A stretch of DNA of 64,000 nucleotides from Candidatus Sericytochromatia bacterium (GCA_050248915.1 JBFWRL010000004.1:12673-76672), one strand, 5' to 3'. Shown: positions 9,334 through 58,342, counted from the stretch's first letter. Numbers and translations: made by a program. Notes: generated by a model not told the origin, from the sequence alone.

Positions 9334-9376
9334 AGCGTAGAGAGTTGGGAAAGAAAAAAAACTGTTTAGCGATCAG

Positions 9377-12477: not shown

Positions 12478-12518
12478 TTCAGCCAAACCTTAACTGAACT
12501 TCACAGAACCCCAACAGA

Positions 12519-41037: not shown

Positions 41038-41052
41038 AGCTGTGGCGGGGCT

Positions 41053-41397: not shown

Positions 41398-41644
41398 GAC
41401 CCGCTATCCAAACAAAACAAATGCGCCATTGATCGTTGATTCGAATACTGTATTGGCCTTTGCGATTGCCTTTCAAGGCTTCCAGTTTATTGCCTGGGGG
41501 CACCTTTAAAAAATCCAGATCGACCGCTGCATGGATTTGCAGCAATTTACGTAGCGCAATGCGATGCAGACTGGGAGGCAATCTACGCGGGGTTTTGCCG
41601 TGAAATAGCTGTTCTGTTTCTTTGTTGGCAAAGCTTTTGATCAT
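41363..41644 (-). CDS. higB: HigB-family toxin (RelE/ParE superfamily, plasmid-maintenance killer)
   Basis: 93 aa. FANKETEQLFHGK...GNRKGQYSIRINDQWRICF is typical of HigB. Confidence 0.75.
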   Translation of the reverse strand: MIKSFANKETEQLFHGKTPRRLPPSLHRIALRKLLQIHAAVDLDFLKVPPGNKLEALKGNRKGQYSIRINDQWRICFVWIAGHADAVEIVDYH

Positions 41645-41689
41645 GCTTTGATATTAACGCAATGCAATAATAACGTCAATCGTTAATAG

Positions 41690-41751
41690 TTGCTGTGGCG
41701 AGTATTTGTAAGTACCCAGGGCTGAGTGCCGAAGAGGTGATGGGGCTTTAG
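41690..41751 (+). repeat. 3'-terminal fragment of the Rpn-like (DUF4351 tail) gene, convergent with paralog D
   Basis: It encodes ..VASICKYPGLSAEEVMGL*. It is homologous to the 3' ends at 50893-50963, 51900-51983 and 46660-46724. Confidence 0.6.
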
Positions 41752-44700
41752 GGCTGTTGCGGGCAAGGCTTTTGAGCTGCTGTGCTGAAAGAGGCATTGG
41801 CAGGCAGCATATTGCAGGCATAGGTGGTCTGTTCGATGCGGTTGCTGGGAATATTGGCTGAGCGCGCTTCAATCCAGCCCCCTTTTAAGGCCTGGTTGGG
41901 GATATTTACAAACATATTTTGAATCTCTACCCCATCACTGTCGATTTTGGACTCTAAAAAGACAGGCTTTTGTTTGATTTCTTTGCCCACTTCTGAGCGG
42001 GGCTGAAAGATAATTTCTGTCTTGGATGGAGCAAAACCTGTACCTGTGAGGTCGAGTTGGGGAGCGGCTTTGTCGGTGGTGATATCTTGGCCGTCTTTCT
42101 CTTTGGGCCATTCAGCCGAGAACAGTTTGGGGCCGAGGAATACTTCGAGATTCATTGTGAACATCTCTTTGTGCTGAGAAAGCCAAGTATCGTATTCCCA
42201 TAATGTATTAAAAACAGAAAGAACAGCTGAGCGAACAGGTTGCGTTTGTCCAAATGAGGTCATCATTAAGTAGCCAGCTTTATTTGTTGAAAAATCACTG
42301 CTGATATAAGGTTTTCTTCTTTTAAGGCCAGATTCAGTGACTTCTTTGACGGCCTCTCCTTCGAGATTATTCACTCCCACCATCCCTGGAATCAAAAATT
42401 CACGCACCTTACGAAACTCACCATTAATGGTTTGACTTAATTTTGGACCTGGAGAAACGGCTCTCACATATAGGTTCCGAGGTTCTCTGATATTTTTATC
42501 TGCTTGCAAAAGCAGATATACCGCAGAAAGAGGCTCTGTGCCTGAACTAGAAACGCTTAATGGTGTTGCAACTGAATGACTGGCTTTGACGATATGGGTT
42601 TTGTGATAGCCAATGTGCGGAAGTGTAATATCTGGAAACAAACTTACATTTTTATGAATGATTGCATCTGTCGCGAATTTGATAAAATAATCAGCTAAAT
42701 GGTCTCTCTGGGATGAATTGTTTTTTTGTTTTAAAACTGCATTTAATGCAGCAGTAGAACGTAAGGTGTCTTTGATTTGCTTTTTTTGGTTTAAGCCATA
42801 TTCTTGAACTACATCAGCAATTATTGACGCTCCCCCGTAATGATTAAATAGATGAGTTCAAAAGGGTACCGTTAAATAAGGGCTTCGAGCCCTTCCTGCT
42901 ATTCTTTTGAGATACATGCTTTCAGTTAATTGGTTTAAAATATCAAATCTTTCTGCATATTCATATAAAACGGGTACAGTTTTTCCCAAACCTAACTCTG
43001 TTGAGTTTAGTTCTGTGGCAACGGTGCCCATTAATGCTGCTGTGCCTTCAATTAACCAGCCATCAAGAGCTGAATTTATTTCGTCTTCGGGTGTGTTTGT
43101 ATAAGCTTGTTGAAATACATGAAATAATTCATGCATTGCTGTTTCAGAACGTACTTGTCCCCAATAATCTGGTTTGAGTAGACCTCCTAAGGTACCTTGA
43201 GTAATATTTAATTGAATAGCAGAGCCCTTATATGTAGTTTCTTCATACAATTCATAAGCAACACCATTAGCAGAGCTAGGAACATTTAAATTTGTTGTAA
43301 GTAAATTTTGAAAGCGGTTAACAAGAAATACAGGGATTTTCGGGTTTTTAAACCCACGATCAAGATAAGGCGGAGGTTTTTTTTACTTCAATTCAAGATA
43401 TTGAATATAGGCTTTTTCTAGGTATTCTTTTGCATTTTTTAGAGCCTCCGGACAGGCTACTCCATGGTTGTCGCTAATAAAAAAATATTTTGAAGAATCA
43501 TCAAACTGAGATTTTTGGGGTGGTGTACAATTCGAATTTTGATTTTGGATTTGGAAAGGAAGGGTTATGTTATTTTCATTATTTAGGAATTGATCCATTT
43601 CCTTTGATGTATAGGCTATCTCGCGAGAGAAAAAACCAAATTTCTGTACCCAAAGCGGGAAATTATGGTGAGTAATATCGCTAAAATTTTCCACATCAGG
43701 TCTTTTTGCTAAGAGAGGGTAATATCCCCAAGATAAAGAATTAAATACATTCATACTTGACGTATCCCAAATGGTTGGTGCACTAAATTTTTGGAAATAA
43801 TTATAAATGGGTAAATTGAGACGTGCTATTTGATTAAGCGTCATCCCCATCGGTTCAATTTTCACGATGGGTGCAGCAAAAACCCACCCTGGAGCACAAT
43901 CATCAGGATCGTTGGGATTGGTACAATTTTGTTTGCGAGAAGCTACCTCTTTCTGCTGGCGCATAACCACCACTGTCGGCGCACTTAAGGCCCCCGCAGG
44001 CAAATCCAGCTTGGCCACCCCCTGCAACTCCACAGTCCCCCCGGCTGGCCCAATCTGCTTGATCCCCGGCGGATACGCCGCCTGCTGATTCGTCGTCCAC
44101 CAGGCCATCTGAAACTCTTTCACTGTATCGGTCTTAAACTTAAGCACTAGATTCTGCCCATCGGGGTTGTACCAATCGCTCGGCACAGGCACAGGCCGCA
44201 CACCCAACAAAAACCAGCGGTTGAGGTCAATGGGCTTGCCTTGTTTGGAGCTGAGGGTGTCTTTGACATAATACAGCTCATCGCTCACTTCTAAGCTGCT
44301 ATTGGGTTTCCACTGGCCTTGCAGGTGCAGCAAAGCCTCGTAGCTGTGCTGCGGCAGGCGAATGGTGGCTTGCCCATCGCTGGCATCGCCATCGAGAATT
44401 TCCAGCTTCTTGCCAGTCCCCGCTTCGAGCACGAGTTGAAACGCACCGTTTTCGGGAATCTTGACCTGCTGCTTGCCGTTTTTGGCCTGGGTCATAAAAC
44501 GCACGACAAAGATCTGGGGCAGATTAAAGCTCTGCACAGCAAAGCCTTCCTCTGTGGGCTTTTCGGCAAGGGCCTGCTCCAGCGCGGCATTGAGCTGGGC
44601 ATTTTTATCGGCGGGCAGGTTTTGCGCCAAGGGTGTGGTTTTCACCCTATTGGGAAAGGTCACCTTTTCAGGCGGCTTTTGGCCTGTGTGTCCAACGATG

Positions 44701-44756
44701 AGTAAGCTAAGTAAAAGGATAGAAAATAAGGTTCTGTATTTCTTCATTCTGTTCAA
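41748..44756 (-). pseudogene. frameshifted paralog (copy D) of the giant HExxH lipoprotein family
   Basis: Three ORF pieces (43383..44756, 42858..43250, 41748..42641) align in order with the N-domain, the HExxH core (AMHELFHVFQ) and the C-domain (..TYACNMLPANASFSTAAQKPCPQ) of paralog B (51986..55021). Confidence 0.7.
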
Positions 44757-45733
44757 CTTTGGGTGAGTGAGTCAAATGCTTGTAAACGCATTTTGAGCAT
44801 GTGCAGACTTTCTCGGATGGCGGTAATGTCTGGCAAATCGCCGTAAACCAAAGGACGAAAACTACTTTGATAGGTTTGGTTCAACTGCTTCCAAAGAATG
44901 TCTGTATCACTGAAAATCAGGGCATGGACCAAAGGTGCTTGATTCCATTCCCCCTGAAATTCCCGGCTGTCGGCATCGTCTTTTTGTGCGTCTTGCAAGG
45001 TCTCAAAAAACCGCCCACTGTTTACAAATTCTCTCAGCGGTTGATGATTCATTAAAATATGTAAATCATAGGTATGACGAATCTTGTTTTGAAGTTGCGC
45101 AATGGGGTCGGCATGGTAAGAGGCACGGGCCAGTGCCAAGACTTTTTCTACCAGTGTTCGCTCTGGGTGTAATACCAGAATAGAAAAGGGTTCAAGCCCA
45201 TATTGACTGATCAAGGCTTCTTGGTTTTGAGCCGCGAAGAAGTCGGCTATCATTGTGTTGATTGGGGTGGGCTGATAGGGGGACGGATTGCCGAAGGCAT
45301 TTAACTCTAAAACAAGAAATGCGCTGATCTGGCTCTGCGGTGCGGGGGCTAACTCTAAAACAGGATAAAGATGGGCCGTTCGGCGAAAGCGAGACCACTT
45401 TTTGGTGATGCCTTCCAGCTTGAGTTCGCTTAAATGGCGTGTGATTTCTTTGGAAACCTTGTCTATTCTGCTTTTGATCTGATTCCCGGTTAAACCTTCC
45501 GCCAGCAAAGCCAGATCAACATCCTCTGAAAATCGCTGGATCAGGCCAAACGCTTTGGAGAGAGAGGTTCCTCCTTTAAAGACAAATCGCTCATGATAGG
45601 GGGATTCTCCCAGCTTTTTTAAGACGGTTGTAAGCCAATAATCTTTTTCGACCCAGGTATCAGGCATTCCCAAATGAACTGCAGCAGCACGAATACTGGC
45701 TTTAAAGAGTGGTGGATTCTCATGTAAATTCAT
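44753..45733 (-). CDS. AbiEii/AbiGii-family nucleotidyltransferase toxin (DUF1814)
   Basis: FKGGTSLSKAFGLIQRFSEDVDL matches the minimal-NTase motif of AbiEii. 326 aa. Confidence 0.7.
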   Translation of the reverse strand: MNLHENPPLFKASIRAAAVHLGMPDTWVEKDYWLTTVLKKLGESPYHERFVFKGGTSLSKAFGLIQRFSEDVDLALLAEGLTGNQIKSRIDKVSKEITRHLSELKLEGITKKWSRFRRTAHLYPVLELAPAPQSQISAFLVLELNAFGNPSPYQPTPINTMIADFFAAQNQEALISQYGLEPFSILVLHPERTLVEKVLALARASYHADPIAQLQNKIRHTYDLHILMNHQPLREFVNSGRFFETLQDAQKDDADSREFQGEWNQAPLVHALIFSDTDILWKQLNQTYQSSFRPLVYGDLPDITAIRESLHMLKMRLQAFDSLTQS

Positions 45734-46458
45734 CGAATATACCAGTTGCGGTAGTTTGGAAAAGTGTCTTTGTCTATTTTGAGGCGATAACGACTGCTGG
45801 GATTGAGGGTTTGCGCCAAAGTCTGGGCCAGTCTCTTTTTTCCCAGACTTTCCAAAACCAAACCCACAAAGGCCCGGCAGGAGGGGGGATAATTCAGGGC
45901 CAGTTGGGCAAGCTCATCTTGCTGATCCCGTTTGAGTTCTTTAATGCGCAAGCGCAATAAAACAGAAGATTTTTCTGGGGTGGTGGCAGGGATGTTATCC
46001 ATTTCCCGAATGGCATCCAGAATTTGCAAGAGATAGGTGTCTTGGACGGCTGTTTTGACATAACTGGGAATAAAGCGAATGGTGGTAGCCCCAGAAACAA
46101 TCGGCATTCGACGCGGCTTGTCAGAGGCGATGACATACTCGGTGGAGACCTGTGTGGTGAGGCCCATTTGGGTATAGGCTGGCAGCCCGGTTAAATAGGC
46201 AATGCTGTCTTTGTACAGAAGTAGCAATTTATCCAGGAGGCCGCGTGTTGTGGGTGGGAGTTCGCCAAAAGGGCTTTGTTCAGGTTTGTAATACAAACCC
46301 TTGGTAATGCGTTGCAAACCACCTGCTCGGTAAAGTTCGCTCAGGGCCTTTTCCAAGGCAATTTTTTTTGCCAGAGGCAGTTTAAAATCCTCCAGAGATA
46401 GCAGCGCGCCCGCCGCTGTATTTTGCACCTGTGTTTTTACCCACTTATTTACATTCAT
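45730..46458 (-). CDS. putative AbiEi-like antitoxin / regulator partner
   Basis: It lies immediately upstream of AbiEii with a 4-nt overlap. RITKGLYYKP is the kind of motif seen in AbiEi/DUF6088-type partners. The start is taken at MNVNKW. Confidence 0.45.
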   Translation of the reverse strand: MNVNKWVKTQVQNTAAGALLSLEDFKLPLAKKIALEKALSELYRAGGLQRITKGLYYKPEQSPFGELPPTTRGLLDKLLLLYKDSIAYLTGLPAYTQMGLTTQVSTEYVIASDKPRRMPIVSGATTIRFIPSYVKTAVQDTYLLQILDAIREMDNIPATTPEKSSVLLRLRIKELKRDQQDELAQLALNYPPSCRAFVGLVLESLGKKRLAQTLAQTLNPSSRYRLKIDKDTFPNYRNWYIR

Positions 46459-46620
46459 TTTGAATTGGCCTAAATTGTTTTCTGACTTGGGTTTTATTGT
46501 AATCAAGTGGACGATATAAATCAAGTTTTTTTATGAAAAACCTGATTATTTTGAACTCAAGACCTTTATGCGTGGCGGGAAAGAATGACAAGATGCCCTG
46601 CGTCTGGGTTTGCAGCAATG

Positions 46621-46724
46621 AGCGGGTAGTAATTTGCTGAACGAATACCTTAGCCGATGGCCTGCCTGTGGCGAGTATTTGCAAGTATACAGGGCTGAGC
46701 GCTGAAGAGGTGGCGGGGCTTTAG
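46621..46724 (+). repeat. internally deleted remnant of the Rpn-like gene 3' region, convergent with paralog A
   Basis: The sequence gtagtaatttgctgaacgaatacctta matches 50677-50695 and is joined directly to gccgatggcctgcctgtggcgagtatttgcaagtatacagggctgagcgctgaagaggtggcggggctttag, which matches 50893-50963. Its stop overlaps the stop of paralog A. Confidence 0.7.
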
Positions 46725-49700
46725 TGGTTTTTGCAATTCCCTGCGCTGGTAATGCGGTAATCAGCTCCTTTGGGTATCATATTGCAAACCAGTTCGATTT
46801 TTTCTTTGTATTCACTCTCTAAATTCCCTGATTTTGCATAGATATAACTTTCCTCCTCTGGGGCTGCGTCATCAGGTACTTTCACAATAATTTCCTGTTC
46901 TTGCTCAATACTGACAGGTTGGGCTAAGTTGCTGACACTGTGTGCTTTTACAGCAATATCCGGCAAATTTGCTAAACGATGTTTGAAATAAACAACCGTA
47001 TCTGTTAAAGAGAATCCTGAACCCCATAGTGCGAGCATTTTATTTTCGGTTACTCCATCTGATTCAGTAAAAGCTCTTTTGCCCCAAATGGTGGGCGAAA
47101 CAAAGGCTTTGAATTGAAACGAGATGGTTTTTTTGTCTGAATTGGTTGTGATATAGGGATTGGTGATACTTAAAATCAGGCGTACACGGTGGGGTTCAGC
47201 AGGATTGTTTTGGGTGGGCCTGTCTTCCTGGGGAATGGGAATGCCCAAGATATAAACACTTCGCGGAAGAACCCCTTTAATACTGGGGTTTCGTGATTCT
47301 GTAGGTACATTTATACGTTTTTCAAATTTGAGAGGCTCGGCCACAATTTTGGGATCAGAAAGCCATTTTACTTTGGCCAAAAGGGGTTTTTCATCCTTCC
47401 AGTTGTCCAGGGGCTTCGGATTTTTGAGTACTAAGACTCGTGTTCCTTTGGCGATAAAATCTTCTGCTTGTTCATCTGTCAAACCCTCTGCGGAGGCTCT
47501 GTCGAGGTAGATATATGCCATATAGGGGTCTTTAAACTTTTTTGGGTCTTTGTCTGATAGTTTTTGAGTTACCAGTGGAAACTCCACATAGCGATGTGCC
47601 ATTTGAAGGTTTTGGAGTGAGCTGTTGGTTACCATTTGAGGGTTGTTGGGGGTGTTGCGGGTTGTGACCAATATAGGGTTTGCACGGTCATTTGGTTGAG
47701 CGGGAATTGTGTAGTTCACTGTTTCGAGGTTGCCCGTATTATTGGCTATTGGTCGTATTTTAGGACGTTCTAAATATTTAAAATTTTCAGGCTTTTCAGA
47801 TCCCATGCCATAATCTTTTAATGCTACTTTGGCCCCAAAATTTGGAAAAGTTGTATCAAGTTGAGCATAGTTATGGAGCGAGGAAACGGCACCCTCATTT
47901 GTAAATTCTCGTTTTTGAAGATAGTGAACATTTATATCGTGAATTTTCTGAAAGGCTATTTGATTTGGATAAAAATTGCTAATAAGGTTTAATATAATAA
48001 GACGATAATAAGCATTTTCGCCGTCAGGTATATTTGGCTCTTGATATAGAGATGTTTGATTTAACAGATCTAAACCTTTACTCAAACTACCATGGTAAGG
48101 AATTTTTCCATATAAAAAGACAACAGGATTTGGGTCAATTCCGTATTTTTTGTACAATTCATGATGCTTAAAGGTACTTATGCTACCCATAAACCTACCA
48201 GAACTTTCAATTAACCAAGCTCGATCTACTGTGCTTAAAGCCCAACCCCAGGGATTGAATGCTTGGTTTGGAAGGTCAAAACTTTTTACATTTGCAACTT
48301 GAAAAGAATGATAATTTTCATGGGCAGTAGAATCTATTAAGTTGTCAATATTGGGACCTGGATCTACCCACATCTCGGCATTGCGAAACCCGTTTCCTTT
48401 TGCATAAGTGTACCCATTGGTTGCTCCTCCTGGTCCAGATGTAATTGGCTTAAGATACAGAGGGATTCCTTTGAAATCCGTACCTCCATGCCGAAAATCT
48501 TCCCACTTGGATGGCATTATTCCCCTGGCATACGGAATAAAGTCTTCACGACTATTTAGGAGAACTTCACATGCTGCATTTTTCTTTTCTTCAGAAGGAG
48601 AAACATCCCATCTTAAAATATATTGAGGTGTTAAGTCGTTGTGAGTATTGATGGGTGGGTTTGGACAAGGTTGTTCACTAACAAGAGCAATTTGAAATTC
48701 TTCTTGTTCATTATTTCCAATATAAGAAGGGGAATAAGTTCGCGGAGCTACAAGTATACGAACAAATGAAAAATGATGTATTTCATACCACTCGTGTTTG
48801 GTCATATAATGAGCTTGCTTTTTTTGGGGGGCCAGATGAAGTATTTCTGCCTGTTCCCAGAAAATGCCATTATCGGGAAACAAATAATAATGTATAGTGC
48901 TCGGCAAATATCCTTTAGCCTTTTCTAAGTCAATTTTCAAGCGTATATTTGCTGGTTTTAAGAATTGTAAGCCGCTGGGTTGGAGTTCAACAGGTGTTGC
49001 CAGATCTATTTCATCTGGACCGGGTGTAAAATCTTCATCAGGAAATTGATATACTTCATCTTTTTGTTTGATAACTATTACTTTATTCTCAGTCAAAGCC
49101 CCCGCAGGTACTTCCAATTCAGCCACCCCCGGCAGCTCCACGACCCCTCCGCCAGGCCCAATCTGCTTGATCCCCGGTGGAAAGGGAGCCTCACCGCGCT
49201 GCTTTTGCAGGAGCAGCTCAAACTCTTTGATCTGCTTGGCCTTAAACCGCAGCACAAAAGCCTGCCCATCAGGGCTGTACCAATCACTCGGCACGGGAAT
49301 GGGTCGCAGCCCCAGCTTGAACCATTTATTATCCCGCTCATCGTGGTGCCCCTTGTGCTTGCGCTCTTTGCTGAGGGTGTCTTTAACATAATAAAGCTCA
49401 TCGCTGACATCTAAGCGGCTATTGTCTTTGGCCTCTTCTAAATGCACCCAGGTTTTGAGCGTGCTTGCGGGCATTTGCACCCGTGCTTCGCCATCGCGGG
49501 CATCTTTGTCTAGTAGCTCAAAGCGTGGGCCAGCTTCGAGTGTGAGCATAAATTCACCTGTTTCAGGCATGAGAATCTGGCGCTTGCCCTTGGCCTCTTT
49601 GCTTTTGAATTCAAGCACATAGGCGGCGTTGTTATCCTGTTCATTGTGTTTGTCATCTTTGTCTTTGTCGCTGGCTGTGCTGAAACCCGTGCCAGGGTCA

Positions 49701-49963
49701 ACACTTGGGTTGTCTAAAAAAGCCCTGAGCAGGGCGCTCACTTCGTCTACTTCGCTGGGCTCGGGGGCCTCTAGCAAAGTGGTTGTGACCATATTGGGAA
49801 AGGTCACTTTTTCAGGTGCTTTGACTGTGCCCGTATTGGCCACGGTTTGTACCTGTGCCTGCTCAGGGCTTTTGCTGCTTTGCTGGGCCGGGGGAATCCA
49901 AGAGCAGGAAGCCAGGAGTGTTGCCAGCAGAGTCGAAGATAGGTATTTGAGAGATGCTTTCAT
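46721..49963 (-). CDS. giant HExxH lipoprotein, paralog A (putative secreted/surface zincin-like protease)
   Basis: 1080 aa. Lipobox LLASC. N-domain with PEKVTFPNMV and PGIKQIGPGGGVVELPGV. HExxH at about 48305-48325 (TAHENYHSFQ). C-domain GSGFSLTDTVVYFKHR...VCNMIP. A strong SD caaggaggtaattaaATG precedes it. Confidence 0.85.
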   Translation of the reverse strand: MKASLKYLSSTLLATLLASCSWIPPAQQSSKSPEQAQVQTVANTGTVKAPEKVTFPNMVTTTLLEAPEPSEVDEVSALLRAFLDNPSVDPGTGFSTASDKDKDDKHNEQDNNAAYVLEFKSKEAKGKRQILMPETGEFMLTLEAGPRFELLDKDARDGEARVQMPASTLKTWVHLEEAKDNSRLDVSDELYYVKDTLSKERKHKGHHDERDNKWFKLGLRPIPVPSDWYSPDGQAFVLRFKAKQIKEFELLLQKQRGEAPFPPGIKQIGPGGGVVELPGVAELEVPAGALTENKVIVIKQKDEVYQFPDEDFTPGPDEIDLATPVELQPSGLQFLKPANIRLKIDLEKAKGYLPSTIHYYLFPDNGIFWEQAEILHLAPQKKQAHYMTKHEWYEIHHFSFVRILVAPRTYSPSYIGNNEQEEFQIALVSEQPCPNPPINTHNDLTPQYILRWDVSPSEEKKNAACEVLLNSREDFIPYARGIMPSKWEDFRHGGTDFKGIPLYLKPITSGPGGATNGYTYAKGNGFRNAEMWVDPGPNIDNLIDSTAHENYHSFQVANVKSFDLPNQAFNPWGWALSTVDRAWLIESSGRFMGSISTFKHHELYKKYGIDPNPVVFLYGKIPYHGSLSKGLDLLNQTSLYQEPNIPDGENAYYRLIILNLISNFYPNQIAFQKIHDINVHYLQKREFTNEGAVSSLHNYAQLDTTFPNFGAKVALKDYGMGSEKPENFKYLERPKIRPIANNTGNLETVNYTIPAQPNDRANPILVTTRNTPNNPQMVTNSSLQNLQMAHRYVEFPLVTQKLSDKDPKKFKDPYMAYIYLDRASAEGLTDEQAEDFIAKGTRVLVLKNPKPLDNWKDEKPLLAKVKWLSDPKIVAEPLKFEKRINVPTESRNPSIKGVLPRSVYILGIPIPQEDRPTQNNPAEPHRVRLILSITNPYITTNSDKKTISFQFKAFVSPTIWGKRAFTESDGVTENKMLALWGSGFSLTDTVVYFKHRLANLPDIAVKAHSVSNLAQPVSIEQEQEIIVKVPDDAAPEEESYIYAKSGNLESEYKEKIELVCNMIPKGADYRITSAGNCKNH

Positions 49964-50063
49964 TTAATTACCTCCTTGCGGGTAGAGGATATAGCGGCCT
50001 GTATTGGCCAGGGTGTCTTGGACCTCCACCTCTAGCGTATGGCCTGGCAGGCGATAGGGCAAG
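49964..50063 (-). repeat. about 100-bp boundary repeat: 3' end of a 930-aa-type gene plus SD, upstream of paralog A
   Basis: It is nearly identical to 55022-55122 and to the genuine 3' end of the 930-aa gene at 58343-58445, which encodes ..LPYRLPGHTLEVEVNDTLANTGRYILYPQGGN*. Confidence 0.8.
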
Positions 50064-50111
50064 AGGTAAATACCAATGGTCTGTATACTTTTGTATGTTA
50101 TAATGGACTGA

Positions 50112-50963
50112 ATGAGTAAACACCGAATTCATTGGGATCATTATTTCAGTCAATGGCTGGCACACGCTTTGCCCCGCCATGATTTGGTGGTTGAAGAAAA
50201 ACCCCAGTTCAGTCAATTGCCCTTAGAAGCAGACGTTTTAATTATTGCGGCTTCTCAGGCCAAGTCTGCATGGCAAAAGCATCCCCTGTGGTGTCATTTG
50301 AGCCCTTATACGGTGCTGGAGTTTAAGTCTGTCGTCGATCCCTTTCGCGCTCATGATTTGGAAACGCTGTCTGCTTATGTGTCTCTGACCCATCGTCAAC
50401 ACCCCTTGTCGTTGCCTACAGAGGTAAGCGGTTGGTTGGTTGTTTCGGCGATGAACAAAGCGTTGCGGAGCCGTTTGCAAAGTTATGGGATTCAATTGGA
50501 ATCACGGCTATCTGGGTTTTGGCAGGCAGAGACGACGTTTTATCGTCTGGGAGTGGTGGAGTACAACCATTTGCCAAATACCGAAGCTTTTTTTGAGTTA
50601 AAAACCTTTATGCGCTCAGGACAAGCGTTGCGAGAAACCCTGCGCATGGGTTTAAAGCACTTAGCAGGTAGTAATTTGCAGAACGAATACCTTACAATAA
50701 TTTCAGCGCTACACAAACAGGAGGCCGAAGCCGTGATTCAGGTATTGGAAAGTGAAAAAGAGAATGTGGCTTGGGTTGTGGAGCAGTTATTAGAGAAGTC
50801 TCCCGACTTGAGTGAAAAGATCCCCTTCATTCAAGCACAGAAATCTTCGGGTAAGCTAGAAGGGTTGCGTGAGACCGCCCGCCAGATGAAAGCAGATGGC
50901 TTGCCTGTGGCGAGTATTTGCAAGTATACAGGGCTGAGTGCTGAAGAGGTGGCCGGCCTTTAG
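50112..50963 (+). CDS. Rpn-family / DUF4351-tail protein (putative PD-(D/E)XK recombination-promoting nuclease/transposase-like)
   Basis: 283 aa. The C-terminal ..ARQMKADGLPVASICKYTGLSAEEVAGL is the characteristic DUF4351 tail of Rpn/YhgA-like proteins. The N-terminal region is weakly nuclease-like. Confidence 0.55.
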   Translation: MSKHRIHWDHYFSQWLAHALPRHDLVVEEKPQFSQLPLEADVLIIAASQAKSAWQKHPLWCHLSPYTVLEFKSVVDPFRAHDLETLSAYVSLTHRQHPLSLPTEVSGWLVVSAMNKALRSRLQSYGIQLESRLSGFWQAETTFYRLGVVEYNHLPNTEAFFELKTFMRSGQALRETLRMGLKHLAGSNLQNEYLTIISALHKQEAEAVIQVLESEKENVAWVVEQLLEKSPDLSEKIPFIQAQKSSGKLEGLRETARQMKADGLPVASICKYTGLSAEEVAGL

Positions 50964-51089
50964 GGGGCTTTTGCTTGGGTTTGGTTACAAGGTGTAGTGG
51001 GTTTATTCTGCAAGGTATTTGAAATCACATAGCTCGCATTGCTCTGAACGCTGTTGCATGAGACAGGTGTGATCCCAAAAACTTCGATT

Positions 51090-51150
51090 TCGAAGTTTTC
51101 TTTGACCTCCACCTCCAGTGTGTGGCCTATTAGCCGATAGGGCAAGTGAG
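51090..51150 (-). repeat. degenerate third copy of the 930-aa-gene 3'-end boundary repeat
   Basis: The minus-strand ORF fragment encodes ..LPYRLIGHTLEVEV... Compare LPYRLPGHTLEVEV at the true gene end. Confidence 0.6.
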
Positions 51151-51227
51151 CGTTGGTTAAAAATAGCCTCAAAACACCCATGCAAAATTCCTGTTAATTT
51201 TGTATATACATATGATATATTTTAAGT

Positions 51228-51512
51228 ATGCGTTTGCCAGATCAAATCCGTACTATTTCATCCGCCCACAAACATGGGGTAACTGAAACCCAAATTTTAG
51301 ACAGCTTGTACAACCCCTACCAACGCCCCTTGCTATTGCGTTCAGAGTCTGACCCGACTGTGGTACTGGCTCTGGCGGAAACAGAAGATGGAGAATTGTT
51401 TGAAATTGGCTATGTACCTGAGCAAGAGGGTGTGGCTAGAGTGATTCATGCCATGCCCATGCGCCTCAGTTACCAAAAACGCTATCACACCAAGAGGAAA
51501 AGGCGAAGATGA
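51228..51512 (+). CDS. putative BrnT-like toxin (DUF497)
   Basis: 94 aa. AHKHGVTETQILD...LFEIGYV...ARVIHAMPMR resembles BrnT. It is paired with the downstream antitoxin by an ATGA overlap. Confidence 0.5.
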   Translation: MRLPDQIRTISSAHKHGVTETQILDSLYNPYQRPLLLRSESDPTVVLALAETEDGELFEIGYVPEQEGVARVIHAMPMRLSYQKRYHTKRKRRR

Positions 51513-51781
51513 AACGAACTGTGCCCCAAACGCTTGCTGAATGTCAAACAGATGAGCAACGTGCAGACTATCTTGTTAAACATGATGTCTTTGAAAGCGA
51601 TGAATTCAAGTATGAAGGGGTGGCCGAGCCTCCCCGTCGTCGCTTGATGCAGCAATTGCATATGCGGATTGACGAAGAAACCATTGCCCGTCTGCGCAAA
51701 GTGGCTGACAGTAAGCGCATGGGGTATCAGACGTTGGCCAGGATGTGGCTGATAGAGCGTTTGGAACAGGAAGAAGTCTGA
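51509..51781 (+). CDS. putative BrnA-like antitoxin (RHH/CopG-like)
   Basis: ..RIDEETIARLRKVADSKRMGYQTLARMWLIERL resembles the BrnA C-terminus (..GIPYQTLI..). Confidence 0.55.
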   Translation: MKRTVPQTLAECQTDEQRADYLVKHDVFESDEFKYEGVAEPPRRRLMQQLHMRIDEETIARLRKVADSKRMGYQTLARMWLIERLEQEEV

Positions 51782-51983: not shown

Positions 51984-51985
51984 GG

Positions 51986-54900
51986 CTATTGAGGACAGGG
52001 CTTTTGAGCTGCTGTGCTGAAAGAGGCATTGGCAGGCAGCATATTACAGGCAAGAGTTGCATCAATGAGTCGGTTGCTGGGGATATTGGCTGTTTGCCCC
52101 TCTACCCAACCGCCACGCAGAGCTTCGTTGGGAATATCCACCACAAATTTTTGAATTTCAACTCCGTCACTGTCTGCTTGAGAGTTGAGAAAATGGGCTT
52201 TGCGCTTAAGATTTTTGTCTATTCCTGAGCGGGGTTCAAATACGATTTCTGTCTGAGTAGGTGTGAATCCAGTCCCTGTGATTAAAAGCTGTGGCAACCC
52301 TTTTTCAGCTGCTTGGCTGAGCTCGTTGTCCTCTTGGGGCCATTCTGCGGAAATGAGCTTGGGGCCGAGGAATACTTCAAGGTTCATGGTGAATTTTTCT
52401 GTATAAGCTTGTGTCCAAATGTCTGTTTCCCAGAGAGTATTAAAGACAGATAAAATGGCTGATTGAACAGGTTGATTTTGACCAAAAAGAGGCATCATAA
52501 AATGCCCTGATTTATCAAAAGCAAAACCACTGCTGATATATGGTTTGCGTTTTTTACCACTGGCTTCAGTTATTTCTTTGACCGCTTCTCCTTCCAGATT
52601 ATTCACACCGACCAAACTGGGCGCTAAAAACTCTTTGACTTTTCTGGCTTGTTGATTAATGGTGTGGGTCAAATTGGGATCAGGAGAAATGGCGCGAACG
52701 TATAAGTTGCGCGGTTGCAGAATCTTCTTATCCGCTTGTAAGAGCATGTATATGGCAGATAGGGGTTCTGTGCCGTTGGTGCTAATGTGAAGTGGGGATT
52801 GGACTGTATGATTGGCTTTGACGACATGGGTATGCCGGAAAGCGACATGGGGCAATGAATAACTGGAGAAAAGGCAAATATCTTTGTGGATGATGGCATC
52901 TGTGGCAAAACGCGTAAAATAATCACTGAGAAGGGTGTCATCTTTTTTCTTTAAAAATGCTGCCAGAGCACCTGTTGAACGAGGTGTGTTTGGGGTATTG
53001 GCTGGTCTTTTTCTAAAGTTTAAGCCGTATTCTTTAAAGAGTTCAGCTATGCCGTTGGGGCCGTAATAGTTCGCAAAATGGGTCCACAAGGGAACTGTGT
53101 CATAAACACTGCGATTTTCGTTATAATCACGTAAATAATAAAAACTTTTTTCCAGTTGTTCCAGAGAACGAACACGCTCATAGTAGCTGTAAACTTGGGG
53201 ATCTATTGCTTCTAATCCAATATCTGCTCTTCTCGTCTCGACCGCAAAAGGCCCCATATATGCTGCTGTGCCTTCGAACATCCAGCGATCACCGATGGAT
53301 GCGTCATCTTCAGGTGTTTGCAAATAGGCATCTTGAAAAATATGAAACAACTCATGTGCGCTTGTATCTGCAAAATTGTGTCCCCAAAAATCTCGGCCAC
53401 CTACCAAACTGTCTTTTTCGATATTCATTTGCATAGCTGAGCCTTGATAGACATTGTTTTTATAAATGGGATAAGCTACGCCATTTGCATTTTGGGGGGT
53501 GGTAGATGCAATGTCCCTCAAGAGATCTTGAAAGCCCTCTACTATAAAAACAGGAATTTTGGTCTCCTCCAGATCGGTTGGAGAATAAAATTGTGGAGGT
53601 GCTTTCATATCCCAACTGGCATAGACAGAATAGGCATTTTCAAGATATTTTTTTATACTGTCCATGGCTTCTGGGCAAGCTTCGCCATCATTGTCGCTAA
53701 TATAAAAGTGTTCTGTAATTTCTCGTTGAAACGTACCCTTTTTTTGACAAGTAGGATTATAGCTCTGAATTTTAAAAGACTCTGATTCAAAAAACTGATC
53801 TACACTGGGTGTATAGTGTTGTTGCTTTGAAAAATAGGCGAATTCTTGGATCCAAAGAGGAAAATTATGATGTGTAATATCACTAAATTTTCGGACATCT
53901 GTACGTTTTGCTAAATAGGGAAAATACACCCAAGAAAAAGGTTCTAAAATATTTGCTGTTGCTACATCTTGTTGGCTTAATGGATCATAACGTTTAAAAT
54001 AATCATAAATTGGTAAATTCAGCTTAGCTGGTTGGTTGAGTTTTAATCCTAATGGTTCTATTTTAACAATGGGAGCAGCAAAAACCCAGCCAAGAGCACA
54101 GTCTTGTGGATCATGTGGATTTGGGCAATATTTTTTACGAGAAGCTACCTCTTTCTGCTGGCGCATAACCACCACCGTCGGCGCGCTTAAAGCCCCTGCA
54201 GGCAAATCCAGCTTGGCCACCCCCGGCAGCTCCACAGTCCCCCCCGCAGACCCAATCTGCTTGATCCCCGGCGGATATGCCGCCTGCTGATTCGTCGTCC
54301 ACCAGGCCATCTGAAACTCTTTCACTGTATCGGTCTTAAACTTCAGCACCAGCTTTTGCCCATCGGGGTTGTACCAATCACTCGGCACAGGCAAAGGCCG
54401 CACACCCAACAAAAACCAGCGGTTTAAATCGAGCAATTTGCCCTGTTTGGAGCTGAGTGTGTCTTTGACATAGTAGAGGTCATCGCTCACCTCTAAGCTG
54501 CTATTGGGCTTCCAGGGGCCTTGCAGGTGTAGCAAAGTCTCGTAGGTATGCTGGGGCAGGCGAATCGTGGCTTGGCCATCGCTGCCATCGCCATCGAGAA
54601 TTTCCAGCTTCTTGCCAGTCCCCGCTTCGAGCACGAGTTGAAACGCGCCATTCTCGGGAATTTTGACCTGCTGTTTGAGGTTCTTGGCCTGGGCCATAAA
54701 GCGCACGACAAAGACCTGGGGCAGATTAAAGCTCTGCACAGCAAAGCCCTCTTCGGCAGGCTTCTCGGCCAGGGCCTGCTCCAGCGCGGCATTGAGCTGG
54801 TCGTTTTTATCGGCGGGCAGGTTTGTGTCCAAGGGTGTGGTTTTCACCATATTGGGAAACGTCACCTTTTCAGGCGGCTTTTGGCCTGTGTCGGCAGCGG

Positions 54901-55021
54901 TCTGCACCTGTGCTTGTATCTGGGCCTGTCGCTGGCTGCTTTGCTGGGCCGGGGGAATCAGGCTGCAGGCAGCGAGAAAGCTGGCGAGCAGGGCTGCGGA
55001 TAGGGGTTTGAGTAAATTCAT
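51986..55021 (-). CDS. giant HExxH lipoprotein, paralog B
   Basis: 1011 aa. Lipobox FLAAC. B/D-type N-domain. HExxH at about 53341-53370 (SAHELFHIFQ). C-domain TGTGFTPTQTEIVFEPRSG...ATLACNMLPANASFSTAAQKPCPQ. The same SD and boundary repeat lie upstream. Confidence 0.85.
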   Translation of the reverse strand: MNLLKPLSAALLASFLAACSLIPPAQQSSQRQAQIQAQVQTAADTGQKPPEKVTFPNMVKTTPLDTNLPADKNDQLNAALEQALAEKPAEEGFAVQSFNLPQVFVVRFMAQAKNLKQQVKIPENGAFQLVLEAGTGKKLEILDGDGSDGQATIRLPQHTYETLLHLQGPWKPNSSLEVSDDLYYVKDTLSSKQGKLLDLNRWFLLGVRPLPVPSDWYNPDGQKLVLKFKTDTVKEFQMAWWTTNQQAAYPPGIKQIGSAGGTVELPGVAKLDLPAGALSAPTVVVMRQQKEVASRKKYCPNPHDPQDCALGWVFAAPIVKIEPLGLKLNQPAKLNLPIYDYFKRYDPLSQQDVATANILEPFSWVYFPYLAKRTDVRKFSDITHHNFPLWIQEFAYFSKQQHYTPSVDQFFESESFKIQSYNPTCQKKGTFQREITEHFYISDNDGEACPEAMDSIKKYLENAYSVYASWDMKAPPQFYSPTDLEETKIPVFIVEGFQDLLRDIASTTPQNANGVAYPIYKNNVYQGSAMQMNIEKDSLVGGRDFWGHNFADTSAHELFHIFQDAYLQTPEDDASIGDRWMFEGTAAYMGPFAVETRRADIGLEAIDPQVYSYYERVRSLEQLEKSFYYLRDYNENRSVYDTVPLWTHFANYYGPNGIAELFKEYGLNFRKRPANTPNTPRSTGALAAFLKKKDDTLLSDYFTRFATDAIIHKDICLFSSYSLPHVAFRHTHVVKANHTVQSPLHISTNGTEPLSAIYMLLQADKKILQPRNLYVRAISPDPNLTHTINQQARKVKEFLAPSLVGVNNLEGEAVKEITEASGKKRKPYISSGFAFDKSGHFMMPLFGQNQPVQSAILSVFNTLWETDIWTQAYTEKFTMNLEVFLGPKLISAEWPQEDNELSQAAEKGLPQLLITGTGFTPTQTEIVFEPRSGIDKNLKRKAHFLNSQADSDGVEIQKFVVDIPNEALRGGWVEGQTANIPSNRLIDATLACNMLPANASFSTAAQKPCPQ

Positions 55022-55126
55022 CTTAACTACCTCCTTGCGGGTAGAGGATATAGCGGCCTGTATTGGCCAGGGTGTCTTGGACCTCCACCTCTAGCGTATG
55101 GCCTGGCAGGCGATAGGGCAAGCTAA
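55022..55126 (-). repeat. about 100-bp boundary repeat (3' end of a 930-aa-type gene plus SD) upstream of paralog B
   Basis: It matches 58343-58447 including the extension ..gcaagctaaaac. There is no intact 930-aa gene upstream of B. Confidence 0.8.
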
Positions 55127-55228
55127 AACTGACCTTTACTGTTATCCCTCACCGCTACCTTTTGCTTTTACATTCTTTCTGAACGCAGTACGATAGCCTG
55201 CAAGAATCTTGTGAGAGGAGGTGCAAAC

Positions 55229-58200
55229 TTATGGGGGATCAGAGTCTGATGTACATGGGTTTACGCTCGTGAGCGAAAAATCTTCTTGCAACATATTGCA
55301 GGCAAAAGCTGTATCGTTCAGTGTATTACTCGGCGTTTCTGCTGATAATCCGTAAGTCTGACCTGATACTTTTGCATGATTCGGTATTTGGACTAATAAT
55401 TCTTGCACTTCTAGGCCATCACTGTCTGTAGATAAAACTTTTATGTCTTGAGGGTTGACTTTTGTTTTGATGGCAATTGCCCCAGATTTTGGTTGAAAAA
55501 CCATCCACGTGTCATTCGGATCAAAACCAACCCCTTGAAATGATATACGTGTAAGCGTTTCATCATCAGAAAGGGCAATTTTTTTGCTTGATTTTAACTC
55601 TGGTGCAAGGTAATAGTTTATGTCCAGAAATATCGATAAGGGTGCTTGGGCGGATTCATAGAAATTTGAATTGGGTATGGCTAAGACTAATTTTTCAACA
55701 TTGGTTTTATTTAAAATTACAGCAGGGAATCCATTTGTTTTGTCTATAAATCTCCTGTAATTTAATACTTTATCAATTCCATTTTCGCTTTTAATCAAAA
55801 ATATGCGCGCATATTTTGCAAAATCAGAGGACTCTTCTTTATTTAAAATTTTAGGAGGAATAGATGAGCCCAAATTTTTAACGATATTATTTAAAAATAC
55901 TATAATCTTTTTATTTGATGGAATATCTTGAGTATCTATTTCAAAAAAATGCACAGAATCTGCCGATAGCTCTTTTCTTAAATTTATTTTGTCCTTTGGG
56001 TAGCTTGTTTTTTTTATTTTTTCTATTTTATCAATAGGGGAAAATAATTCAATATTATAATCATTTTTAATCTTAATAAGATTGCTAGCCGAGTTCATGC
56101 CATAATGTTGGCGCGTATAAAGTGAGTGGGAATATTTTCCCCAAATTTCTTCCCAGCTGTCGTCTTCTAATTGAGCTTTTATGGTATTGTTTTGAAGAGC
56201 TAAAGTTTTTAAAGGGACAACTTGATGGTCAGAATTGTTGTGAAAAGATTGTACGTAACTGAGTAAAAAAGAGTTTCCAAGGTAATCGTTCTCTGGCTTG
56301 CTTTCAGAGCTTCCTACCAAATGCCAGAAATAGGACATGAGAGAGACTTGCTGATAAGGATCTGGCGTTAGTCTAACAGGCTTTTGGGTGTTTTTTATGC
56401 TTGGCAATAAATCTTCGATGTATGCAGTTAAGGAGCTACTTGACTGTGGACTGGACCAAATCAAAGAAAAAGCAGATTTCCCTGTAAAGTTTGTTAATAT
56501 ATTATAGTTGTTAAAATCTCTGTATAGTTGATGTGAACCCACAAAACGAGCCGTACTTTCTCCCGGTAGTCGACCATAATTACACGTTTTACAATATAAT
56601 TGGATATATGTTGAGTAGTCTAAATTTCCAAACTGGAAAACATGAAACATCTCATGATAAACTTTCTCAACACCTAATGGGTATGTTAATAGCGGTATGG
56701 TTACAGAGGATGAGCCTGCTTTAAATTCTTTTAATTTAGTTGTTGCCTCAATGAGATTTGAACCTATATTTATTCTCTGTTTTCGGGAGGTGTATCCAGG
56801 TATTTGGTCGTCTAAAATCGGCAAAGAAATGTTAGCTTGATCTTTTTTTGAGAATTTTTGGTAAGATTTTTCCGCTGCTACCATATATGCAAGGATATAA
56901 GCCGCATCAAGAGCTGAATTTGTTTGGTCATTTGTTATATGGACAAAAATATGACCAGGATCTGGTGCTGGTTCATTGCAAAGTTCTTCAAGTCTTTGTC
57001 TTGCTGAAGAAACAGATATGATTTCATTTGCTAGAGAGATTCTTGTTAAGCAAAATTTGGAGCTACCTCCTTGATTTGGCTTTGGTGCTGGTAACGTATT
57101 GGTTGAAATTAGAAAATCATTGTCGGTTAATTTGGCAAAATATGAAAAATGATTTACTAAATAACCTACTTCGTCAATATTATTAAATTGAGGGTTAATT
57201 TGTTTTGTTTCAAAGTCTAGAGATTGGCAATTTACGTTTTGAAGAGGTGATGTCTTCAACTCTGGACAGGAAATCATTTGTATTAAACCAATGTGATAGG
57301 GCCAATTTTTAAAAAAAGTGCTTAAACGCATGACTGCAGGTTTTTGAAATGTAAGCCCAGTTGGATTCATTTTTACAATAGGGGATACAAAAGTAAAATC
57401 ATTAAATGGATACGTAGAAACAACCTGCCTCATAGAGATAACTACTGGTGCTAATAATGCACTTGCTGGCACTTCAAGTTTTCCCACCCCCGGCAGCTCC
57501 ACTGTGCCCCCCGCAGGCCCAATCTGCTTGATCCCCGGTGGAAACGGAGCCTCACCGCGCTGCTTTTGCAGGAGCAGCTCAAACTCTTTGATCTGGTTGG
57601 CCTTAAAGCGCAGCACAAAAGCCTGCCCATCAGGGCTGTACCAATCACTCGGCACGGGAATGGGTCGCAGCCCCAGCTTGAACCATTTATTATCCCGCTC
57701 ATCGTGGTGCCCCTTGTGCTTGCGCTCTTTGCTGAGGGTGTCTTTAACATAATAAAGCTCATCGCTGACATCTAAGCGGCTATTGTCTTTGGCCTCTTCT
57801 AAATGCACCCAGGTTTTGAGCGTGCTTGCGGGCATTTGCACCCGTGCTTCGCCATCGCGGGCATCTTTGTCTAGTAGCTCAAAGCGTGGGCCAGCTTCGA
57901 GTGTGAGCATAAATTCACCTGTTTCAGGCATGAGAATCTGGCGCTTGCCCTTGGCCTCTTTGCTTTTGAATTCAATCACATAGGCGGCGTTGTTATCCTG
58001 TTCATTGTGTTTGTCATCTTTGTCTTTTTTATCGTCATCTTTGCCTTTGTCGCTGGCTGTGCTGAAACCCGTGCCAGGGTCAGCACTTGGGTTGTCTAAA
58101 AAGGCTTTGAGCAGGGCGCTCACTTCGTCTACTTCGCTGGGCTCGGGGGCCTCTAGCAAAGTGGTGGTGACCATATTGGGGAACGTCACTTTTTCAGGCG

Positions 58201-58342
58201 GCTTTTGGCCTGTGTCGGCAGCGGTCTGCACCTGTGCTTGTACCTGTCGTTGGCTGCTTTGCTGGGCCGGGGGGATCAGGCTGCAGGCAGCGAGAAAGCT
58301 GGCGAGCAGGGCTGCGGATAGGGGTTTGAATAAGGCTTTCAT
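55229..58342 (-). CDS. giant HExxH lipoprotein, paralog C (mosaic)
   Basis: 1037 aa. The first about 55 aa are B-like (MKALFKPLSAALLASFLAACSLIPPAQQSSQRQ). The N-domain is A-like from PNMVTTTLLEAPEPSEV onward, including a KD-rich insertion. The unique very AT-rich core has HExxH at about 56640-56668 (VYHEMFHVFQ). The C-domain is B/D-like: ..TAFACNML. Confidence 0.85.
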   Translation of the reverse strand: MKALFKPLSAALLASFLAACSLIPPAQQSSQRQVQAQVQTAADTGQKPPEKVTFPNMVTTTLLEAPEPSEVDEVSALLKAFLDNPSADPGTGFSTASDKGKDDDKKDKDDKHNEQDNNAAYVIEFKSKEAKGKRQILMPETGEFMLTLEAGPRFELLDKDARDGEARVQMPASTLKTWVHLEEAKDNSRLDVSDELYYVKDTLSKERKHKGHHDERDNKWFKLGLRPIPVPSDWYSPDGQAFVLRFKANQIKEFELLLQKQRGEAPFPPGIKQIGPAGGTVELPGVGKLEVPASALLAPVVISMRQVVSTYPFNDFTFVSPIVKMNPTGLTFQKPAVMRLSTFFKNWPYHIGLIQMISCPELKTSPLQNVNCQSLDFETKQINPQFNNIDEVGYLVNHFSYFAKLTDNDFLISTNTLPAPKPNQGGSSKFCLTRISLANEIISVSSARQRLEELCNEPAPDPGHIFVHITNDQTNSALDAAYILAYMVAAEKSYQKFSKKDQANISLPILDDQIPGYTSRKQRINIGSNLIEATTKLKEFKAGSSSVTIPLLTYPLGVEKVYHEMFHVFQFGNLDYSTYIQLYCKTCNYGRLPGESTARFVGSHQLYRDFNNYNILTNFTGKSAFSLIWSSPQSSSSLTAYIEDLLPSIKNTQKPVRLTPDPYQQVSLMSYFWHLVGSSESKPENDYLGNSFLLSYVQSFHNNSDHQVVPLKTLALQNNTIKAQLEDDSWEEIWGKYSHSLYTRQHYGMNSASNLIKIKNDYNIELFSPIDKIEKIKKTSYPKDKINLRKELSADSVHFFEIDTQDIPSNKKIIVFLNNIVKNLGSSIPPKILNKEESSDFAKYARIFLIKSENGIDKVLNYRRFIDKTNGFPAVILNKTNVEKLVLAIPNSNFYESAQAPLSIFLDINYYLAPELKSSKKIALSDDETLTRISFQGVGFDPNDTWMVFQPKSGAIAIKTKVNPQDIKVLSTDSDGLEVQELLVQIPNHAKVSGQTYGLSAETPSNTLNDTAFACNMLQEDFSLTSVNPCTSDSDPP

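Follow-up and report, generated by a model that had tools for sequence, protein, structure and literature searches.

How does one gene of a tandem array come to resemble one neighbour at its start, a different neighbour further in and no neighbour in its middle? The question is raised by a stretch of 64,000 nucleotides (nt) from a metagenome-assembled genome (MAG) of Candidatus Sericytochromatia (GCA_050248915.1, JBFWRL010000004.1:12673-76672), hereafter the window, which was available to us as contig sequence only. The last 22 kb of the window hold, all on the minus strand, a gene here called U and then an array of related genes of about 1000 amino acids (aa), C, B, A and a decayed copy D, which belong to an uncharacterised family. 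A first, sequence-only reading of this DNA had taken paralog C to be a three-way mosaic of B-, A- and B/D-type pieces, and direct evidence of recombination or gene conversion within the array. We find that the mosaic has two parts and not three. C is probably a real recombinant that carries one gene-conversion tract of ~0.65 kb common to A and C, within a modular, recombination-prone family. Positions below are those of the window, and related contigs and proteins are numbered with L and P.

To locate the switches, the 5′ 1.3 kb of A, B, C and D, together with 300 nt upstream, were aligned, and a site was scored wherever A and B have different bases and C has one of the two. From 58332 to 58184, 43 of 45 such discriminating sites in C are B-type, so the proposed match between the 5′ ends of C and B stands. 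The switch to A that had been placed near 58170 is confirmed as well: from 58169 to 57517, 253 of 256 sites are A-type (15 of 78 outside this tract), and likeness to A reaches past 57801 to 57517. Over the tract C is 98.7% identical to A (49787-49156), with a longest exact run of 367 nt (57975-57609). The two copies lie in the same orientation, 8.4 kb apart. An 18-bp indel had been given as their only difference; the indel is in fact 21 bp long (58048-58028) and is accompanied by 8 substitutions. It is an insertion in C that resembles an imperfect tandem copy of the neighbouring 21 nt. Beyond 57513 the signal of the discriminating sites is mixed, the alignment is soon lost and nothing in the window matches C. 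The maximal chi-square for two breakpoints was 238.9, whereas 200 permutations gave a mean of 13.1 and a maximum of 31.9 (0/200 reached the observed value). Divergence along C is therefore far from uniform, with two sharp breakpoints, and these, together with identity at synonymous sites and the permutation test, uphold recombination or gene conversion within the array.

The step in identity is also seen at silent sites. Among codons for the same amino acid, C and A have 184 of 188 third positions identical over aa 81-287 and ~35% after aa 288. The corresponding comparison of C with B gives 34 of 36 over aa 2-41 and roughly half later on (18-74% per alignment window). Differential constraint on the protein is thereby ruled out as the cause of the step. 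Moreover, adjacent segments of C have incongruent phylogenies. In the N-domain, which the tract encodes, C and A are 99% identical in nucleotides, C is 56-58% identical to B, D, P0003 and P0004, and those four are 85-90% identical to one another; bootstrap trees of this segment group A with C in 300/300. In trees of the segment comprising the tail of U and the signal peptide, A is split from B, C, P0003 and P0004 in 300/300, and C stands beside P0003 in 194/300. Both breakpoint intervals (58184-58169 and 57517-57513) fall inside islands that are kept in all paralogs, EKVTFPNMV and PPGIKQIGPAGGTVELPG. Near these boundaries the exact runs shared by A and B are 14 nt (EKVTFPNMV island) and 19-21 nt (PPGIKQIG/GGTVELPG island).

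Downstream of the tract, the core of C is unique, as had been claimed: blastn and blastp searches gave no match of A, B or D to C between ~57440 and 55625. The unique part begins at 57513, not at ~57400. The supposed return to the B/D type in the C-terminal domain is what did not survive. Here C and B share 33.6% aa over 134 residues (blastp, E = 8e-17) and have 11 of 32 third positions identical; blastp gave no match to A, and no nucleotide-level match to other paralogs was found in the window. P0012 (37%) and P0116 (40%) score at least as well against this domain as B, D and P0003 (33-34%), and the ACNML motif is a family-wide feature. The B-type 5′ end and the A-type tract of the proposed mosaic thus remain, and the C-terminal piece is an ancient family resemblance. 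A C-type fragment from another sample (L018, P0090) has 78.6% nt identity over the last 1269 nt of C, spread evenly across core and C-terminus, and is uniformly 72-78% identical to C through both. Because this identity is even, core and C-terminus of C have been inherited together, with no breakpoint between them. Behind the L018 gene, as behind C in the window, lie a spacer and a U-tail copy.

We then considered the 5′ end of C. A, B and C share one sequence over the ~105-114 nt that precede their start codons, which for C is the 3′ end of U; the copies in front of A and B are therefore duplicated U tails. The tail before C is 98% identical to that of P0003 and 95% to that of B. Contig L001 carries U followed directly by P0003, the positional orthologue of C, and aligns to the window at 90% nt identity along the 3′ three-quarters of U and ~180 nt into C. 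The alignments of L001, L003 and L004 to the 5′ flank of C all end at 58161, that is, at breakpoint 1, after which L001 goes on as a B/D-type gene. Since C is syntenic with L001 up to 58161, at 92-98% identity, its 5′ end is the resident sequence of this array position. On this comparison the 5′ end is vertically inherited and not a second import, which leaves one inserted A-like tract to explain.

The explanation that we favour is a non-reciprocal homologous exchange between A and C that would have made their N-domain segments near identical, with everything flanking the tract remaining deeply divergent between them. It would have been resolved in the EKVTFPNMV and PPGIKQIGPAGGTVELPG islands, the sole A/C homology outside the tract at which resolution was possible. 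We infer that conversion was of the RecA type and ran from A into C: ancestral C would have consisted of a b-type (B-like) signal peptide, a b-type N-domain and the C core, a combination of the type seen in P0004. Any adaptive role of the exchange would likewise be conjecture. Several observations weigh against this account. The direction is unpolarised, as in no outgroup does the corresponding core come with a close N-domain of A or C type; the nearest A-type N-domains elsewhere are fragments of 71-77% aa identity, and the only C-type relative (L018) is without its 5′ half. The flanking homology offered to a RecA-type exchange between A and ancestral C is short (exact islands of 14-21 nt). 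The sequence is a MAG contig with an exact repeat of 367 nt, longer than any short-read k-mer, and the linkage of N-domain to core rests on how the assembler resolved that repeat. Lastly, a single historical event says nothing of ongoing or programmed switching.

Two other histories would keep the recombination and change its course. The more credible of them, though doubtful in our view, is that C as a whole, or all of it 3′ of breakpoint 1, arrived by unequal crossing-over or by uptake of DNA from another strain, with the left crossover in the signal peptide or linker and the right one in a U-tail copy, the likeness to A having come along or arisen by later conversion. L001 and L004, in which U is followed directly by a B/D-like gene and C is missing, would fit such an arrival, as would the spacer and U-tail copy behind the C-type gene of L018, which imply that C plus tail travels as a unit. 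The cassettes of contig L012, at 95-97% identity to the window against 88-90% for its flanks, also suggest exchange between lineages. However, unequal crossover between the 5′ regions of C and B could just as well have deleted C from L001 and L004, and arrival alone leaves unexplained an identity to A of 98.7% that is confined to the N-domain; conversion between A and C, or from a common donor, would still be needed. It is unlikely that the exchange ran in the opposite direction or that the tract is older, such that the A/C-type N-domain is native to C and was received by A, the b-type signal-peptide junction being a separate, earlier recombination. Breakpoint tests on three sequences cannot polarise the event, and P0035 combines an A/C-type N-domain (76%) with a ZU5 domain somewhat closer to that of C (42%). 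Transfer from A into C is nevertheless favoured, because one event then explains both breakpoints and the reverse needs an additional, older one, and because b-type signal peptides are more commonly joined to a b-type N-domain, with various cores (B, P0003, P0004).

The remaining alternatives would do away with the exchange or give it a programme. That the contig is a chimera produced in assembly, in which shared k-mers or collapsed repeats linked paralogs or co-existing strains, and that the mosaic is present in no single genome, is improbable. The MAG source, the 367-nt exact run and the fact that the related contigs L001, L002 and L005 break off inside a paralog or right behind one all invite the suspicion. 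Yet the longest exact run common to A and B at breakpoint 1 is 14 nt, where C moreover has bases of its own (58181, 58166), and this is not enough to support a mis-join through k-mers; if paths had been swapped within the 367-nt repeat, the downstream cores would have changed places, but both breakpoints and the mosaic would still be there; the 8 substitutions and 21-bp indel show that the copies were not collapsed; and analogous blocks occur in at least four independent assemblies from different assemblers. We hold it very improbable that the array is programmed for antigenic or phase variation, with silent cassettes continually donating segments to an expressed copy as in pilE/pilS or vlsE. 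Predicted surface lipoproteins of modular architecture with conserved junction motifs would suit such a system, and the non-functional D and remnant of a fifth copy could be its sequence reservoirs. Against it, only D and the remnant are defective, and A, B and C are intact genes that each have their own U tail and ribosome-binding site, ATG start and lipobox, which leaves no single expression site; a search of 41000-61500 for inverted repeats of 40 nt or more returned none, and so gave no hint of invertible elements, nor was a dedicated recombinase identified; and the sole tract seen homogenises rather than diversifies. Practically no weight is left for an N-domain that is merely under stronger purifying selection, with no recombination at all. 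N-domains are indeed conserved across species (B and its L004 paralog share 95% aa in the 180 residues before the GPAGGTVELPG motif, and the U proteins 48%), but the same N-domain of C is just 57% identical in nucleotides to B and D, the segment phylogenies are incongruent in 300/300, and 98% of synonymous third positions agree within the tract, with saturation beyond it, a step which refutes selection as the cause. A diversity-generating retroelement was also considered and rejected, as the 8 differences between C and A are not adenine-specific and no reverse transcriptase is present among the open reading frames (ORFs) inspected.

A conversion tract between A and C would be in keeping with the rest of the family. 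In a scan of genome contigs, the family was found only in MAGs of Sericytochromatia and Blackallbacteria. Tandem paralog pairs in L004, L010, L005 and L006 have 5′ blocks that are 87-93% identical, beginning ~120 nt upstream of the start codon; the shared block stops ~30 nt past GPAGGTVELPG in L004 and L010, and ~390 nt further on in L006. Similarly, P0004 (L003) follows B at 87% until 5 nt past the motif and then has a different core, like that of P0007. When 53 family proteins were split at the motif into the 180 residues before it (N-domain) and the 150 after it (core), 26 of the 33 pairs with N-domains at least 70% identical had cores of at most 37% identity. The converse is found for P0008 compared with P0010, P0011 and L011 (cores 70-72%, N-domains 44-47%), and across all 53 proteins N-domain and core identity correlate with r = 0.25. 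These data point to a head and a body that have been reassorted family-wide at the same place, the motif at the start of the ZU5 domain. The cassette-based diversification that the sequence-only reading had seen here therefore holds for a modular family whose modules are reassorted at conserved motifs across genomes; it does not hold in the sense of antigenic variation, A, B and C being full-length and the event having made copies more alike. In a scan of metagenome contigs we recovered five distant or fragmentary relatives only, and no second copy of the C junctions. Adjacent paralogs of L010 combine a 5′ block of 90% (9089-10297 and 12765-13976) with an internal 3′ block of 450 nt at 97.6% (12063-12512 and 15790-16239) around a divergent middle, and on these alignments appear to form a more evident three-part mosaic than had been proposed for C.

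Comparison of the locus between strains revealed duplication, deletion, rearrangement and probably lateral exchange. The coordinates of the features are collected in Table 1. Paralogs A, B and D and the remnant are each followed by a piece of ~98 nt from the 3′ end of a 283-aa gene, which lies inside the array; C is without it. The piece itself is at 50868-50965, its copies are at 51888-51985, 46629-46726 and 41656-41753, and the remnant abuts the gene itself. The U tail, made up of the last ~35 codons of that gene, precedes A, B, the remnant (51099-51146) and, as U itself, C, and is absent from D. The same bracket of U tail and 283-aa gene is found in another species (L004, L005). Such bracketing by fragments of neighbouring genes suggests repeated duplication or insertion of a unit with its ends inside the flanking genes, and the remnant, in which a U tail is fused to a paralog's C-terminal end, that nearly the whole of a fifth gene was deleted. 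Arrays of this kind may grow, shrink and rearrange by unequal recombination between the repeated flanks of their cassettes.

Table 1. Features of the locus and its surroundings, with positions counted from the first nucleotide of the window
Feature	Position	Strand	Remarks
Gene U	58343..61135	-	930 aa; stop abuts start codon of C; tail 58343-58456 includes AAGGAGG ribosome-binding site
Paralog C	55229..58342	-	1037 aa; predicted lipoprotein signal peptide (..LAAC|S), N-domain, ZU5-like domain, candidate metallopeptidase motif HEMFH, C-terminal beta domain with ACNML..C
Segment S1 of C, signal peptide and linker, 'b' type	58185..58342	-	nt identity 94% to B, 92% to P0003/L001, 88% to P0004, 72% to A
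Breakpoint 1 interval	58169..58184	-	between last B-type and first A-type informative sites; EKVTFPNMV island
Putative conversion tract	57517..58169	-	partner A 49156-49787; encodes N-domain
21-bp insertion in C relative to A	58028..58048	-	7 codons, K/D-rich
Motif GPAGGTVELPG, start of ZU5-like domain	57488..57520	-	breakpoint 2 at its 5′ edge, 57517/57513
Core specific to C (rest of ZU5, HExxH helical region, beta region)	55625..57512	-	unalignable to A/B/D at nt level; 3′ third with 78.6% nt counterpart in L018
C-terminal domain of C	55229..55624	-	33-34% aa to B/D; silent sites saturated
U-tail copy before B	55023..55136	-	
Paralog B	51986..55021	-	1011 aa; b-type signal peptide, B/D-type N-domain
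Two small overlapping ORFs between B and remnant	51228..51781	+	94 and 90 aa
Fifth-copy remnant	50960..51181	-	73-codon ORF: degenerate U tail (LPYRLIGHTLEVEV) fused to paralog end (..CNSVQSNASY..PC..)
283-aa gene, convergent	50112..50963	+	inside array; weak Rpn-family match
U-tail copy before A	49964..50077	-	
Paralog A	46721..49963	-	1080 aa; tract partner; own diverged signal-peptide segment, unique core
AbiEii and DUF6088 partner	44753..46524	-	toxin-antitoxin
Paralog D	41748..44756	-	decayed copy; in-frame stops TAA 43385-43383, TGA 42860-42858
HigB/HigA-like	41053..41644	-	toxin-antitoxin
Y1 transposase TnpA	38911..39324	+	IS200/IS605-type pair
TnpB/OrfB	37556..38863	-	IS200/IS605-type pair

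The contigs L004 and L012 match the window at 90% in the flank with the isocitrate-lyase gene, and differ from it in the array. In L004, as in L001, U is followed by a B/D-like gene without C. In L012 (MAG_89, JADMKE010000038; 8366-13098) codons ~10-93 of U are joined directly to D at window position 43384, and the whole array in between is missing. In the comparison of L012 with the window (60855/43384 and 41036-46725), the cassettes of D 3′ end with HigBA and of AbiE stand in swapped order. The L012 cassettes are 95-97% identical to the window and the housekeeping flanks 88-90%; because the cassettes are more alike than the flanks, lateral exchange of cassettes is suggested. Toxin-antitoxin modules separate the cassettes. 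Behind C lies a spacer of 207 nt that holds no ORF, and behind B and A are fragments of the 283-aa gene and unrelated toxin-antitoxin modules. A scan of the intergenic spacers for promoter and terminator consensus sequences gave nothing interpretable.

Paralog D is a single reading frame broken by two stops. Family homology begins at ~44689; its 5′ leader is unrelated to the family and abuts AbiEii. D is ~90% identical to B in nucleotides up to about aa 300 and ~57% thereafter. The TGA stop is absent from L012 (8708-10399), so this nonsense change is likely to be recent. The replaced leader of D still resembles a signal peptide of non-lipoprotein type (MKKYRTLFSILLLSLLIVG).

What do these proteins do? 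All copies share one plan: a lipoprotein signal peptide, VTFPN, the N-domain, PPGIKQIGPAGGTVELPG, HExxH and CNM[LI] near the C-terminus. HExxH is kept in all members ~280 residues past the motif, and CNML in most full-length members. Lipoboxes were read by eye from the sequences by the criterion [LVI][ASTVI][GAS]C, and are ..FLAAC|S in C and B and ..LLASC|S in A. Domain limits were drawn from sequence profiles. Searches of the paralogs against Pfam, NCBIfam and PDB sequences gave sub-threshold matches throughout, including single-sequence Pfam matches to ZU5 (PF00791) of 13.5-18.7 bits, below the cutoff of 21. A family profile searched against 1.84 billion representatives found 238 proteins at E ≤ 1e-3. 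One match is P0130, a eukaryotic NACHT-ZU5-Death protein with three Pfam-verified ZU5 domains, which fall on positions 265-411 of the profile (whole-library E = 2.4e-12). Because the profile aligns these verified domains, the recurrent boundary is the start of a ZU5 domain, and the region behind it a true homologue of ZU5.

ZU5 is an autoprocessing domain, listed as a processing autopeptidase in polymorphic toxins (PMC3482391). On the strand aligned with the one cleaved in eukaryotic ZU5 (SFS/NFS), A (HHFSF) and C (NHFSY) have HFS, the canonical tripeptide of autoproteolysis, B has EFA and D/P0003 have KFG/QFA; the HFS lies at ~57150 in C (aa 398-400) and at ~48790 in A, and the EFA of B at ~53880. 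Possibly, then, only some of the paralogs self-cleave. H563, E564, H567 and E595 are invariant. Peptidase matches are weak, to the 4fgm aminopeptidase N family (E = 0.005), M61 (E = 0.08) and DUF5700 (E = 0.027), and the match to the MXAN_6640 HExxH family reaches 24.7 bits against a cutoff of 140. An AlphaFold model of C from a 10-sequence family alignment was too poor to use (mean predicted local distance difference test score, pLDDT, 43; predicted template modelling score, pTM, 0.29). From these motifs and profiles the paralogs are predicted to be lipid-anchored, possibly self-cleaving metalloproteases.

A literature search returned no description of the family, nor of gene conversion in Sericytochromatia; bacterial ZU5 was mentioned only in the survey of polymorphic toxins (PMC3482391). 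The array was compared with known systems. Concerted evolution by unequal crossing-over or gene conversion is familiar from rRNA operons, tuf and the M-like protein genes emm/mrp/enn. As in those families, copies within one genome are here partly more alike than orthologues, copy number varies and there are repeats at the borders. Unlike there, only the 5′ module is homogenised, and the 3′ modules are as different as those of distant family members; the outcome appears to be a family with a conserved head and a variable body, not a set of uniform copies. In programmed antigenic-variation systems a single expression site is accompanied by many partial cassettes that lack promoters, and switching occurs at high frequency. 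Neisseria pilE/pilS, Borrelia vlsE, Anaplasma msp2 and Treponema tprK resemble this array in having surface proteins, clustered relatives and segmental transfer that ends in conserved stretches, but here there are three intact genes, two decayed copies and one detectable tract.

Another comparison is with the bab outer-membrane adhesins of Helicobacter pylori, which evolve by intragenomic gene conversion, the exchange having been observed experimentally and during infection. Like the present genes, babA, babB and babC are full-length paralogs that can each be translated independently, nearly identical in their 5′ (and sometimes 3′) segments but divergent in the middle. Moreover, bab chimeras, too, arise from non-reciprocal tracts of a few hundred bp, with no need for silent cassettes. 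The bab genes differ in being dispersed and in encoding beta-barrel adhesins, whereas here a tandem array, bracketed by fragments of neighbouring genes, encodes lipoproteins with ZU5 and HExxH. They differ also in that their exchange was observed, and that of A and C is deduced from one assembly.

Polymorphic toxin systems with orphan cassettes, such as Rhs, CdiA and MafB (Zhang et al. 2012, PMC3482391), offer a further parallel. They too join a conserved N-terminal part to a highly variable C-terminal part at a conserved recombining motif, with decayed or displaced copies nearby. However, in those systems a cognate immunity gene is present, and none follows any paralog here; their toxin folds are unrelated, whereas the variable parts here share a plan of ZU5, HExxH and a beta domain; and their toxin tip is 100-300 aa long, the variable part here ~700 aa. 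No dedicated secretion system was identified in the window, in a survey that covered its last ~28 kb only. A more far-reaching reading, which we offer as a speculation with the odds clearly against it, is that the array is an undescribed polymorphic effector locus. Its conserved, lipid-anchored head would present a releasable metalloprotease body, autoprocessed at ZU5; heads and bodies would be swapped at the motif at the start of ZU5 within and between genomes; and displaced alleles would be stacked in tandem, bracketed by the U tail and the 3′ end of the Rpn-like nuclease gene, which itself may promote the exchanges.

In itself, the mosaic of C is a textbook signature of gene conversion between paralogs, an ordinary process that involves no new principle. 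It does mark a hypervariable and structurally unstable locus in an uncultured, non-photosynthetic sister group of the cyanobacteria, at which cassettes are gained, lost and reshuffled between genomes that are ~90% identical in the flanks. The family is small, ~240 clusters among 1.8 billion representatives, and consists of large lipoproteins that pair ZU5 with an HExxH domain. If the proteins are indeed surface or secreted effectors, this would be a candidate locus for inter-strain conflict or for interaction with a host or prey in Sericytochromatia.

Several observations were made on the neighbours of the array. Gene U is unevenly conserved: its 3′ three-quarters are 90% identical in nucleotides to L001 (7184-9997), and its first ~840 nt have no nucleotide-level alignment. 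In the comparison with L004 (7191-9968) the b-type N-domain downstream reaches 95% aa and U only 48%. The U protein gave no match in Pfam, NCBIfam or PDB sequence searches, and has a Pro/Cys-rich linker at about aa 490-600. The 283-aa protein has a sub-threshold match to the Rpn recombination-promoting nuclease/putative transposase family (TIGR01784, E = 8e-4, confined to the last 70 residues). What is copied behind the paralogs is the conserved peptide at its C-terminus (..ARQMKADGLPVA.ICKYTGLSAEEVAGL), and a fragment ORF of the gene lies at 51786-51983 (+). The IS200/IS605-type pair just beyond the array is missing in L012, whose alignment jumps from window position 39400 to 37548.

Lastly, the protein encoded by C has an exact match in one public record, AB7I41_01890 of a Candidatus Sericytochromatia MAG, and A corresponds to AB7I41_01855. 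B is annotated there (AB7I41_01880, P0006) as a protein of 834 aa that starts at MSDDLYYV, which leaves out the signal peptide and most of the N-domain. The omitted 5′ part is clearly coding, with 94% and ~90% nt identity to paralogs, and an antisense ORF was probably called in its place. Public gene calls are thus unreliable at this locus, where B is truncated and D is split.

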